Part shown: positions 39,175 through 45,935 of the stretch, in pieces | How positions within the stretch are numbered: the first letter of the stretch is position 1 | Layout: each line of letters opens with the position of its first letter | NCBI GenBank assembly: GCA_963848295.1 | Contig: CAWKDB010000010.1 | Span: forward strand, 512,001-576,000 | Length of the DNA: 64,000 bases | Reading direction: 5' to 3' | Origin: an uncultured delta proteobacterium | Lineage (GTDB): Bacteria; Myxococcota_A; Polyangia; Haliangiales; Haliangiaceae | Translations under genes and position numbers: made by a program | Notes under the pieces: generated by a model | Database searches by the model: none | What the model was told of the DNA's origin: nothing | What the model saw: the letters and a program-made list of their open reading frames with translations, nothing else

Positions 39175-39273
39175 GGGCGGAATGAGATGGATCGATCTGC
39201 AACAAGCGCCAGAGAACATTCGGCACGCCGCGAACCTCAGCGAGACGATCTCGATCCGTTTGGACCAACCTAA
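38350..39273 (+). CDS. istB: IS21 helper ATPase IstB
   Basis: GKPGRGKTHLAVAIG, LIVDEVGY, TSN, AIIDRVLE, GPSMR; GTGA overlap with istA; reading frame runs through the right IR. Confidence 0.95.
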   Translation: MKPFDLNVDAMLKRLSLANTRRTWRDLVARAEKEQWSYHDFLSTLVAEEVAHRQQTRIQRNAQRSCFPFLKTVDDFNFTYQSTVKLALLGSALSPDFVTDGRNLIFHGKPGRGKTHLAVAIGYRAIQNGFDALFVTAAELIEDLSVASHDNQLADALVRYVAPHVLIVDEVGYLTYGQDAANVLYHVVTQRHQARRSMVFTSNKPPDDWGTVLHDDDLAAAIIDRVLERGRLLKLDGPSMRTQHLGLDAPAHAAAGSPEVARISGIQGPEFPEPTGRNEMDRSATSAREHSARREPQRDDLDPFGPT

Positions 39274-39555
39274 GGAGCCGTTGTATCGCGTTAGCGCCAC
39301 GTTCCCATGGCAGTTGCCAGACAACCGCGCGTTCAGGAGCGGTCCCTGATTCTATCAAGGAGAGGGCGGCCTCTCCGAGAGCCCGCTCCGCTGGCGTTCC
39401 TTTTAGCTGCTCCGCCAGCTCCGCCAGCGCCGAGGCGACATCGATGTCGGATCGCAGCCAGGATGGCCCCAACGAGTATCTTGCCGCTTCGCGGATCACC
39501 GCCAGCCAATTCGTGTCGTCGCCGTAGGTCCGGCCCAAATAGGTGACAGCGCCGC

Positions 39556-41158: not shown

Positions 41159-44100
41159 GGCATCACCAAGGGCGCCCGCCTCGTGGCCGACAGTGGAAGA
41201 GGAGGCATGACGCACTCGCGAGCATCGGCTTGCCCTGGCTTGAGCGCGGCTGGATCCGTGCGACCTGCGTGCTCCTCGTGATCAGGATTTAGTTTGCCCT
41301 CAGGGGAGAGGGAAAGGTCGAGAGCGGTCGGCCGAGAAGCCCCACCCTCGGCATTCCGATCTGGCATGGCGAGTTCGGGCGGCAGTTCGACGATCTGGTA
41401 CCCGTCCTCGTACTCGGGGCCGACTGCGAGCCGCATACGCATTTCCGTAGGCGAAATGCCGGCCGGCACGTCGTTTCCAGCGAAGAACCAACCGGATGCA
41501 CCTGGCGGAAAATCACCGATCATCGCGTCGGAATTCACGTCGGCCATCGGATCAAACACCAAGCGGCCCGCCTTCACTAAGTCTACGAGCTTCGCAGCCA
41601 TTCCCCAAGCGTCTTTCGGGCTGGGCTTGACCGGCGGAATCTCGGACGAAAGCTTGCTTGCACGGACATAGAGGTCGGCCGTCGCGTTTGCGAGTAACCA
41701 CTTGAGAGACAATGCTCGGCGGAGCCCGCCCAGTTCCCGCTTCACGAAGTCAGCGCTTGGCATCTTGCGCCCTTTGCGCAAATACGCGTCGGGGTGCCTG
41801 AGCGTGACGTCCCTCATGAGGCGGTGTAAATCGACGACGGGCTGTTCGGACCTTGCAAACTCGACGGCGAGATCGGCGAGGAAGGCTACGCGCACATCGT
41901 TCGGTAGGTTCTTGTCCTCGTGAACCTCCCGCAACCTGCGGAGCCCTGCTTCGTTTCCTGGCGTCGCCGGTAACAAATCGCCAGCGTGCGGATCCCCGCG
42001 CAGCAGTGCCGCCCGTAGAGCCGCCGGTTCTAAGGCCGAGGTTCGCCCCGCTGCGTGAGCACCTTCCCGCGACGGTCTCTCCTTATGGGAGTCAGCATCG
42101 GCGGTCGCTCCGAGCAGCTCGCGCTCCTGCTCGATCAGCGCCTGGTTGCGCGCCTGCAGCTCCGCGCCCGCGTTCGGATCGGGCGCGGGGTCGGCGGCGA
42201 GGAGCGCGGCGTCGGCATAGAACGCGTCGCGCGCCGCGAACAGCGCCTTGGCGGCAGGCAGCTGGCCGCGCTTGGAGCCCTCGAGCGCGGCGCGGTGCTC
42301 GTGCCACGCGCGGACGCGGCCGTGGAAGAACTTGCCGACCGCGATCGCGGCGCCCTGCATCAGCGCCATCTCCGCGAACGACGACGACGCGTCGGCGCTC
42401 CCTCGGAACGTCGTGACCAGCCGGTGCGCGGCCCACTGCGAGGCGGCGCCGGTGACCTTGTCGAGCATCGCCGGGGTGCCCGCGAAGTCGGCAGACGCCA
42501 ACAGCGTGGCGCGCTCGCCCTCGGCGAGCCCCGGCAACGTCGCGAGCTGGCGCGCCTCGTTGCTCGCGATCGCCTGCGCCGAGCGCAACGGACGCAACAG
42601 CCCGCGGCTGAAGACGTCCATGAGCGCGTTTTCGAGCACGGCCGAGCCCGCGTCGCCGGGGCCGCCGGACTGGGCGAGCTGGACCGCGGCGTTGATCGAG
42701 GCATTGACCGCGATGTCCGACGTGAACGCTGCGGTCTCGACCGCGAACCGCGCGACCTGCTGGCCGGTGGTCGCCGTCACCGTGACACCGTCGACCGCAA
42801 CCGCCGCCCCCGCTGCCGCCTCTTCACCGCCGGCGATCGCAGCCGACACGGCGCTGCCGGCTGCCGAGGCGATCCCGGCGGTCGCGATCGTGATCGCGAC
42901 CGCTTTGGCGAGCGAGACGAGCGCCTGGATGATCTCGGCATCGTGGACCCTCTCGCGAACCTCATGGATGAAGTCGCGCAGATCCTCGTCGCCGGCGATC
43001 CGCGCGAACGCCTTGCGCGCCGCCGCGAGGCCGTACGCTCGGCCCTGCCACTCGCCCCAGCCGTCGGGGGCTCGCTCGTCGACCTGCACCACCGGCGTGC
43101 CGTCGCGCTGCGCTTGGATCCACAACCTCTCGATCGAGAACAACCGATCCCGGACGTCCGAAACCAAGTCAGGCGGGAGCTTCAGCCCCGGGAACATGCG
43201 GTGGAAGTCCTCGCCGCTTCCGAACGCGTGGTCAGCGGCGGCCTGCAGCTCGAGCAGCGCGTCGCGCGCGGCGGTGATCCGCGATCGCAGCGCGACCTCT
43301 CCGGCGGCAGTCGCCGCCTCGGATTGCAGGTACGGCGCGGTGCCCGCGTGGGTGCCGAGCAAGGCCTGTTGGCGCTCGTCGTGAATCGCGGCGTCCGCCT
43401 CGCTCGTTCCGACGGCCGAGTGTTCGCCGACTGCGATCAGATCGCGAGTGCCGCTGTGCAGCTCGACTTGTGCGGCGTCGAGCTCGTCGAGCTGTGCGGC
43501 TCGCGCCTGCTGGTCCAATGACTCGACGAGCTCGTTGCTCTGATCGCGCAGCTCGGAGACCGCGGCAGCTTGGACATAGGTCTGAAGCCGCGCGAGTAAC
43601 GGAACGCGCTCACCGACCCGCCACGGGTCGATCGCGCGGATCTGGCGAACCAGCGGGCCCACCTTCGCCGTGATCGTCCGGAGCTGGGTGATCTGAAACT
43701 GGAGGACCGGGAGCCACGCCGCGGCGTTGCTATCGCTCCACAGCGCGACCCGCTCGGCGCGCGCCGAGTACGCGGCCCCGAGCGCGCTGCCGACCCCGAG
43801 CGGCGTCACCTCCGCATCGAGCGCGTCGAGCACGACACCGACCGTGCGATCGAGCTCGATCAGGCGTTTCACGGTCGCCGGCTCACTCGCGGCTCCGGCG
43901 AACTGGCGCGTCGCCGCGTCGGCATTGCCGTACGCGGAGCCCACCATGGCGACGACTTGGGCGCCGGGGGACAGCTCGGTCGTCGCTACGGGCGGCATCC
44001 CGAGGAGTCGTCGTGCGGGCTGTTCGAGCTGTGCGTTCGCGGAGACGTTGTTCGTTCCCACGAACGCGTGCGGGTATTGCTCGGCGATCAGCGCTCGCGC

Positions 44101-45935
44101 CACCTCCGGATCGATCCGGAACGCGTCGCCTTCTTTGTGGACGGCGAACGCCATCGTCGACTTCGCCGAATCGCGCCATAGCGCTGCCGCGACCTCCTCG
44201 GCCGTCGCGGTGCTCGGAGTCGCTCGAACGAAGTTCCATAGCGCCGCGCTCTCGCGCCCGAGCCACTGCACGTCGACGTGGTGCAGCGCGGTCGGCGTCG
44301 TCTTCGCCGCCTCGACACCGTCATCCACGACGATGCCCGGCAACGCGAGCGCCCGCGCGACGAACGCATCCATCGGATGACTCGCGATCAGGTCGTCGCT
44401 GCTCGGCCGCTGCCCGGTTCGAGCCCATGCGTCGGCGAACCGCGGCCCCACGCGCGTGCGCAGCGAGACCACCGCCGCGCGCTCGACGAGCTGCGCGAGC
44501 GCCTCGGCGAACTCCGGCGCCCACGCGTCGATCTCGTGCGCGCGTTGCTTTTCTTTCTTCGCGTCGCGCGGGCCGATCGACGAGAGCTCGCGTCCTGTGA
44601 CGTAGCGGTCGAACCGGCCTTCGAGGTCGCCCGGCGAGACCAGCGCGGGCATGGTCTCGCCGTGCTCGAGTGAATCGCCGACGAGGCGGGCGAGGCGGCT
44701 CGAGAACGTCTGGTCGCCGCGGAGGCCGCCATAGCCGGCGCGGTCGAACGCCTCGTCGCCGCCTCTGGCCCAGCGCAGCCCCGGGCCGGGCGCGGGCCAC
44801 GCCGCGTCGGCGAGCTGCGACGCGATCGCCAGCGTCAACGGCGCACGGAACATCGTCAGGTACTCGATGAGCAGCGTCCGCGGCTGTTCGGTTGCGGATG
44901 CCGGCGACGGTGCACGCGACGCGCCGTCATGCACCATCACGGCGGCTGGGGACAGCAGACCGCCGAACATCGGCGCGCCGGTGCGCGCGACCGTGCCGTT
45001 GCGCAGTGCCTCGAGCAGGCGCTTGCGCGTGGCGTCGTCGAGTCGGGCGAACCGCGCGGCCACGTCATCGCCGGATCCCGGGCGATAGCGCGCGAGCCGG
45101 GCAGCCAACGCGCGGCGTTCGGAGCCGTCGAGATGCCGACAGCACCCCGTCGAGCCGGGCTTCGACCTCGACGCCGGCTTCGAGGATCCGGCGCAAGGTG
45201 TCGTCGGTCGTCACTGTGGCTGGCGTCGCTTGGTCGGGGAGCGACGCCGCGTCCCGGGGTGCGTGCCCCGCTCGCATCGCCTCGCGCTTGCGCGCGCCTC
45301 CGAGGTACGCGAGCACCGCATCGAATCGGCTCCTCGTGATCCGGACGTTGGGCGCGAGCGCGGACGCGATCGGATCGCCCGCGCGCGCGCGGTGCGGTCA
45401 ACCGGCGCGCCAACACCGAGCACTCGGCCGGAGACATCTGATCGAGCTCGGCCTTCAGTGCCGCCTCCTTCCGAGCCCAGCCGTCCCTCGCGCCGTCGAC
45501 CGGGGCTTCGAGCACCGCGACGAGCTCCGCCTCGCGCGACACCGGAGACCAGCCCAGCGGCGGTTCTGCCAGCTCGTTCGCCGAGGTCTCGTGCTGGACG
45601 AGCGCGCGCTCGGCGTCGTTCAGCTGTCGCCGGGACTCGTCCGACGCCGCGCTCGCCCCGGCGCGAGCGGTGACGAGCTCGTGCTTGGCTTCTGCAAGGC
45701 GCCGGTCGAGCGCCTGCTTGGCGGTGGCCCAATGCTTCGGGTCGTTCGCGGCGTGAGCTTTGCGGACCTCGTCGACGGCGAACCCGAGCGTCTCGATGTC
45801 GCGCTTCGCGGTGGCGACCGCATCGTCGGCTTGCTGCGCCGGGGTCCGCGCCGGCGCGCGATACGGGTCGGCCGAACCGACGCGCGGCGCATAGCTCAAC
45901 TCGTGGCTCTGACCCGGACCGGCGAGCTCGCTCAC
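41155..45935 (-). CDS. Large putative polymorphic toxin (~1590 aa; frameshifts near 45135 and 45390 as assembled)
   Basis: ORF pieces 44937-45953, 45065-45316 and 41155-45108 align colinearly to the N-terminus of 55531-58245; central hydrophobic Ala/Gly stretch; lower-GC C-terminal domain. Start GTG 45935 inferred from the paralog. Confidence 0.72.

Follow-up and report, generated by a model that had tools for sequence, protein, structure and literature searches.

The minus strand of a 64,000-nucleotide stretch of DNA from an uncultured delta proteobacterium of the Haliangiaceae (G000:C10:512001-576000, the window) carries a large gene joined to a small gene, imm1, and behind them a copy of part of the large gene, a fragment resembling its C-terminal tip (tip2) and a relative of the small gene (imm2). 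Does this arrangement encode a polymorphic toxin with its immunity protein, and can the downstream block supply the toxin with another tip? We read the locus as a decayed copy from a family of polymorphic toxins with immunity genes that is likely undescribed; the family is probably linked to an extracellular contractile injection system (eCIS), and the tip is predicted to be an NAD-consuming domain of ADP-ribosyltransferase (ART) fold. The full reading, a ~1,300-aa carrier with an exchangeable ~290-aa tip of this predicted kind, an overlapping likely antidote gene and likely eCIS delivery, appears reasonably probable. Such a toxin would combine the constant body, variable C-terminus and tip-specific downstream gene seen in the comparisons below with likely delivery by the cell's own eCIS; the tip would likely kill rival bacteria by consuming NAD, the overlapping small gene would likely encode the antidote, and the relic tip2-imm2 block would have been kept for its immunity gene until an IS21 element split imm2.

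The body of the large gene was shared among relatives that differed at their ends. A homology search with carrier residues 200-1351, in which 8000 candidates were scored, returned seven carrier homologs, one of them recorded from a Myxococcales bacterium. In all of them except P0006 the alignment spanned most of the core and ended near residue 1000 of the open reading frame (ORF), where identity and the G+C content of third codon positions (GC3) both switched sharply. The core was found in 28 of 137 other genomes of the family (a tally that takes in the unpublished G088), all from one genus (28/90), and the ~340-aa N-terminal domain in 34 of the 90 same-genus genomes and in none of the 47 other family genomes (counting the unpublished G010 and G088). 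When 22 C-termini were compared, the 20 distinct proteins among them formed 15 clusters; the variable C-termini sought in homologs by the original prediction were present, and the conserved carrier with interchangeable C-terminal domains is that of a polymorphic toxin. The carrier family likely represents undescribed bacterial warfare toxins, with at least 15 different ends on the same body among the relatives. The body itself is uncatalogued: no Pfam or NCBIfam family matched the carrier, and at E<=0.1 no Pfam family was found on the 1351-aa frame, the 5' piece or the full-length closest homolog P0001. Pfam scans revealed no YD-Rhs core, haemagglutinin repeats, LXG or PAAR, and by its sequence the carrier is not Rhs, CdiA, LXG or PAAR. 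On the 16 core-bearing genome carriers, Pfam recognized a zeta toxin on two and Immunity protein 22 directly behind another. The core had one hydrophobic segment and a GC3 of 0.88, compared with 0.65-0.70 in tip1 (the resident tip), imm1, tip2 and imm2 (0.70 in the tip1 module). Because GC3 fell where likeness to P0001 stopped and likeness to P0006 started, the resident gene itself appears to be a chimera of a carrier and an acquired tip. Twelve of 18 loci with the N-terminal domain, some of whose carriers were frameshifted, had their stop in view, and a 4-nt overlap with the next ORF was present in 8 of these 12. Within the window, an intact paralog of 925 aa (55468-58245, plus strand) had only the ~340-aa N-terminal domain in common with the carrier (51% to P0001), followed by an Ig-like (HYDIN/ASH) domain and an unrelated C-terminus, with a 4-nt overlap into the downstream ORF. 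This paralog and the downstream ORF (55468-59198, plus strand) may be a second toxin-partner pair. Several of the carriers at L045, L110 and L054 contained or ended in adenosine-deaminase-like domains, two of them followed by pentapeptide-repeat genes; other carriers had an oxidoreductase-like end followed by STM4015-like genes, and these are further candidate toxin-immunity families.

The gene behind the tip followed the tip. Profiles of the tip and of imm1 were run on 138 family genomes and matched seven and six other genomes, respectively. An imm1 homolog lay directly behind all five of the other full-length tip genes (G016, G018, G024, G061, and G075); G093 had a tip remnant with an intact homolog, G107 a tip remnant with no imm homolog found, and G003 an imm homolog without the tip. 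Nine further homologs of imm1 were found in databases. Across 26 loci, the family of the downstream gene was common to 20 of 21 same-tip pairs versus 5 of 304 different-tip pairs, and none of 10,000 shuffles reached 20, with the limits that 15 of those 20 pairs belong to this one tip family, some loci were found via the tip, and kin are not independent. Purely on genomic grounds, the downstream gene is thus tip-specific, as that of a polymorphic toxin would be. The earlier proposal of a polymorphic toxin with a cognate immunity gene agreed with both the variable C-termini and the small gene behind the tip in other genomes, and imm1 is likely the immunity gene for the tip, whose product very probably binds and blocks it. 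The predicted structure of imm1 consisted of a β-hairpin and a HEAT-like helical solenoid (pLDDT 95) and returned only generic HEAT/ARM solenoid matches; the immunity proteins of Tne2, Rhs1-CT, TNT and SPN were not among the 50 structural matches listed for it.

To what fold does the tip belong? The longest structural match of the exchangeable module was the NADase SPN (module residues 18-290, 167 aligned), and its structural neighbors in the Atlas belonged to the TNT family, whereas a PDB sequence search with the module gave no match at E<=10 and the Pfam TNT family (PF14021) did not match it. Residues R105 (41718) and E272 (41217) were invariant, and the counts were 16/16 for R105, 21/21 for S179, 21/21 for W181 and 25/25 for E272. 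With the ART triad defined as conserved residues on strands 1, 2 and 5, these residues lay in the triad's order on or next to predicted strands, an agreement at the level of order. In the ART fold predicted for the tip, Arg105 would sit on the first strand and Glu272 on a late one. Tpt1 and CC0527 are also ART-fold proteins. Compared with the ART-fold NADase effectors Tne2-Tni2 (6B12), Serratia Rhs1-CT/RhsI1 (6XTD), TNT-IFT (4QLP) and streptococcal SPN-IFS (3PNT), the module had no sequence match; its ~290 aa include an extra helical part and inserted helices. Where NADases of the TNT/Tne type have a strictly conserved late-strand Gln, Gln1452 in Rhs1-CT (PMC10539506), the residue at that position here is Glu272. 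NAD(P)+ hydrolysis was our first choice for the activity, at about even odds in our judgment, and ADP-ribose transfer to RNA, DNA or protein the second, for which the odds appear rather poor. A true ADP-ribosyltransferase resembling TreX, scabin or DarT would leave the toxin-immunity system the same and is unlikely to a similar degree, since the longest match is to an NADase, the Atlas neighbors are of the TNT family, and SPN is an NADase although it uses R289 and E391 (PMC6893971).

With regard to delivery, DUF4157 was the only trafficking-type domain seen on the carrier family, occurring on two of the seven homologs, 5 of the 16 core-bearing genome carriers and all four complete tip-bearing genome carriers. 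This domain has been described as a marker of eCIS toxins that is frequently separated from the toxin by more than 1000 aa, and the particles can package effectors longer than 1,100 aa (PMC8213781, PMC11297309). Its presence on many homologs ties the family to the known PVC/eCIS toxin class; the suspicion that no known marker was present and that the carrier might be undescribed therefore held for the carrier but not for the marker. The genome has a complete structural eCIS cluster (G000:C2, ~901,000-934,000, minus strand), in which 12 of 13 scanned ORFs matched eCIS-type families, and Pvc16 was present in 120 of the 138 family genomes, G010 and G088 included. The cluster also includes a stand-alone DUF4157 gene, a pentapeptide-like gene and FHA-like genes. 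Several observations weighed against eCIS delivery. The locus is on contig C10 and the cluster on C2, not within about ten genes of each other, while 88% of the known eCIS-associated toxins lie near the operon (PMC11297309). No DUF4157 was detected on the scanned pieces of this gene or on P0001, and a genome-wide PF13699 search gave five matches, none of them in the window. Immunity genes are unusual for PVC/eCIS toxins (PMC3482391, PMC8213781), and DUF4157 sometimes occurs on effectors of type VI secretion systems (T6SS) (PMC11297309). Delivery by another route (T6SS, exchange between outer membranes or plain secretion), where the link to eCIS would merely come from domains held in common, would accommodate these points and is possible, if on balance unlikely, because VipB was not found in the organism's own genome (85% complete) and none of the scanned carriers had Pfam matches to Rhs, PAAR, VgrG, LXG or haemagglutinin. 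We slightly favor in-trans loading into the eCIS, for which many relatives would use DUF4157 and this copy perhaps the uncatalogued N-terminal domain. An AAA ATPase with a winged-helix domain (49213..51198, minus strand), presumably PVC-AAA-like, had seven paralogs in the genome, one of them beside a DUF4157 toxin locus, and may be linked to the toxin. It lies in a minus-strand group (49213-53699) with a 576-aa hypothetical gene and an overlapping FGE-sulfatase-domain gene; an FGE-domain gene also adjoins a carrier in G091.

The family shares with PVC/eCIS toxins, already listed for the myxobacterium Haliangium, a constant N-terminal part with highly variable C-terminal toxins, the >1000-aa "linkers" common between DUF4157 and toxin, and a genome that holds an eCIS cluster (Zhang et al. 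2012, PMC3482391; Geller et al. 2021, PMC8213781; PMC11297309). Unlike them, this copy lacks DUF4157; what it has is the uncatalogued N-terminal domain of ~340 aa and a conserved core of ~1000 aa. In nearly all complete carriers a tip-specific partner gene abuts the carrier gene, and orphan relics occur, whereas most PVC/eCIS toxins are without immunity genes (PMC3482391, PMC8213781). Because it lacks both DUF4157 and linkage to the eCIS cluster, this copy was not assigned to the class, though it resembles a member in its working.

Is the copy in the window still armed? The features are collected in Table 1. The GTGA overlap between the stop of the large ORF (41155-41157) and a small gene of 157 aa was as first described, but the large gene is not a single ORF: aligned with P0001 (1545 aa), it is spread over three frames that break near 45385 and near 45110-45150. 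With two frameshifts in the main gene as assembled, the claim of a full toxin was not supported, this carrier copy is probably disarmed, and imm1 is the sole clearly intact part of the locus. Either decay or assembly error may underlie the frameshifts, which, like both arm junctions, were spanned by no contig compared.

Table 1. Features of the toxin-immunity locus and its downstream block (window positions)
Feature	Position	Strand	Remarks
Carrier 5' piece	45384..45935	-	72% to P0001 aa 1-184; start of ~340-aa N-terminal domain; no match in Pfam scan of the piece
Carrier second piece, another frame	45107..45385	-	58% to P0001 aa 183-287
Conserved carrier core, ~1000 aa	42097..45147	-	79% to P0001 aa 270-1307
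Exchangeable toxin module, 291 aa	41155..42030	-	Helical part, then predicted ART-fold domain (residues ~87-291)
imm1, intact 157-aa likely immunity protein	40685..41158	-	GTGA overlap with toxin stop
Spacer, 271 bp	40414..40684	.	No long match elsewhere in own genome or in compared loci
Copy of carrier interior (arm), 461 bp	39953..40413	-	Source 42841-43301 = ORF residues 603-756
tip2, remnant of second toxin module	39556..39957	-	Begins at module residue 156
imm2, first 128 codons	39175..39559	-	ATGA overlap with tip2
IS21-family element	36807..39174	+	istA 36872-38353, istB 38350-39273; inside imm2
imm2, last 28 codons	36719..36806 (codons 36805-36719)	-	Beyond IS21

Behind imm1, the spacer, the interior copy, tip2 and imm2 follow one another. 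The copy, here called the arm, matched its source with four mismatches in 461 bp (99.1%) and was found nowhere else in the genome; it is the interior copy first given as 456 bp, a length counted up to the last mismatch. The diverged version of the last ~130 aa was likewise recovered as tip2, a 133-aa frame with 59% identity over 135 aa to the C-terminus of the large ORF (E 2e-52). The second 4-nt overlap and the small-gene paralog were also real (imm2 was 36% identical to imm1 over 121 aa, E 6e-21), except that the paralog is split by IS21. The repeat, the overlaps and the paralogy are not due to chance. In orphan modules of rhs and cdi (contact-dependent inhibition) loci and in displaced effector-immunity arrays of T6SS, a main pair is similarly followed by a start-less toxin fragment, a second immunity gene and a near-identical carrier stretch (Koskiniemi et al. 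2014, PMC3967940; Kirchberger et al. 2017, PMC5361080), and in Salmonella rhs an arm of 522 bp and 95% identity enables fusion of the orphan into a functional gene (PMC3967940). The arm described here is close to that size and more similar, the tip2 frame is open for 133 aa, and the tip2-imm2 pair is from another subfamily, all as expected of a working cassette able to swap out the main tip via recombination at the arm. However, the shared stretch neither adjoins the orphan tip nor is in frame with it: the arm ends at ORF residue 756 while tip homology begins at 1182, 426 residues apart in the parent gene, and after a crossover the carrier's frame would stop about 15 codons past the arm, so the equivalent fusion would be truncated. 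In addition, tip2 is cut inside the fold, covers under half of the module and lacks residues 1-155, including the strand of R105 (the first catalytic strand), and imm2 is split. A long interior arm was seen downstream in none of 25 other carrier loci, of which 8 had <2 kb of downstream DNA; L110 had a downstream copy of its own tip. No toxin can arise from the arm-tip2-imm2 block via recombination at the arm, and the usable cassette proposed in the original prediction, very improbable in general, is refuted for the sequence as assembled. As tip2 is only part of the predicted fold, tips of ~130 aa would probably score as false negatives in toxicity tests.

We regard the block instead as a probable relic of displacement or insertion between two subfamilies of the same toxin, which fits a displaced 3' end with retained immunity (PMC5361080) and not the reactivatable Salmonella cassette. 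The tip2 fragment grouped with G024 and P0010-P0012 (100/99), and imm2 was 68% identical to the G024 immunity homolog versus 36% to imm1, which points to an origin of the pair in a different subfamily and not to divergence at this site. The few shared bases at which the arm and tip2 meet suggest a later deletion between them. The IS21 element had 23-bp inverted repeats, a 5-bp target duplication and an IstB_IS21 match (E 3e-62), and the last 28 codons of imm2 beyond it resemble the C-terminus of the intact G024 homolog. The element is single-copy in the assembly; the depth of its contigs in run X1, possibly the source sample, was 7 versus 2.4-3.2 for unique flanks, a hint of more copies in the population. 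The outcome of displacement appeared independently in G093, where L083 (G093:C280, 1-4700) is a small orphan array with a P0001-type tip and its partner, a decayed remnant of the tip type studied here, an intact imm2-like gene and a further P0001-type tip fragment.

Could the breaks and the duplication be assembly errors, so that the living gene is simply part of an intact toxin-immunity pair? The six 1-nt gaps of a partial hflX duplicate nearby, together with the uncovered frameshifts and arm junctions, would allow it, but this is very improbable for the whole arrangement, since the arm differs from its source at four sites and tip2 and imm2 have distinct sequences that belong to another subfamily. 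Among the contigs of run X1 were exact matches to imm2 (39257-39463), to the junction of the IS with imm2 (37690-39219) and to the overlap of tip1 with imm1 (41106-41256), and ORF lengths around the window resembled those in the rest of the contig. A database protein of noisy sequence, P0042, runs from imm1 across the spacer and into the arm, which is weak evidence given its 54-66% identity and possible origin from the same sample. That the frameshifts alone are assembly errors is likelier than for the whole arrangement, and is a real if minority possibility.

Given that the locus is a decayed copy, its value lies in the family. Tentatively, one uncultured myxobacterial genus may wage kin warfare by eCIS with a large, scattered arsenal of carriers of 1,400-2,300 aa, loaded in trans through DUF4157 or the new ~340-aa domain and bearing swappable tips with cognate immunity and orphan immunity relics as in T6SS and CDI, the tip here defining a new family of SPN-like Arg/Glu NADases and its partner a new family of HEAT-like immunity proteins. 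If so, the rule that immunity genes are missing for eCIS toxins would have a clear exception, and a new eCIS loading signal would be added. For Geller et al. (PMC8213781), the missing immunity genes next to antibacterial eCIS toxins are an intriguing mystery, and they noted long, unexplained linkers between DUF4157 and the toxin. Here the linkers are conserved domains by which the carrier family is defined, and a tip-specific partner gene abuts almost all of its members, so the question of whether eCIS kills close kin becomes testable. The carrier is also a sequence handle for toxin mining, as a toxin family exceeded the Pfam cut-off in only 2 of the 16 core-bearing genome carriers, and the tip would add an NAD-targeting family without sequence match to known ones. 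In the portions available of the literature on DUF4157 toxins with immunity, polymorphic toxins of Kofleriaceae (Mx-alpha only) and contractile injection in Haliangiales and myxobacteria, the family was not described. Within the reach of these searches, what is new comprises the domains of the carrier, the tip family of ART fold, its family of immunity genes and the near-universal cognate partners, with the proviso that supplementary lists (Zhang, eCIStem, polymorphic toxin candidates) could hold the tip.

Elsewhere in the genome, another polymorphic locus (G000:C10, ~4,144,700-4,157,300, minus strand) had a 2210-aa double-DUF4157 frame ending transposase-like, and continued with three paralogous ~500-aa genes separated by short orphan-like tips. 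Within the window, fragments of a gene that we take to be patatin-like were duplicated (48770-49215 and 54737-55453, 100% identical), as were fragments of hflX (53695-54719 and 59194-60212, 96.5%, six 1-nt gaps). These duplicates flank the 49213-53699 and 55468-59198 modules, as if the modules had integrated while duplicating host gene ends. At ~19,100-35,200 on the plus strand, Cys-rich, beta-helix lipoprotein-like genes formed a near-identical tandem array with a period of 1.3-1.4 kb and 85-99% identity, with presumably PEGA-like genes between some of the copies.

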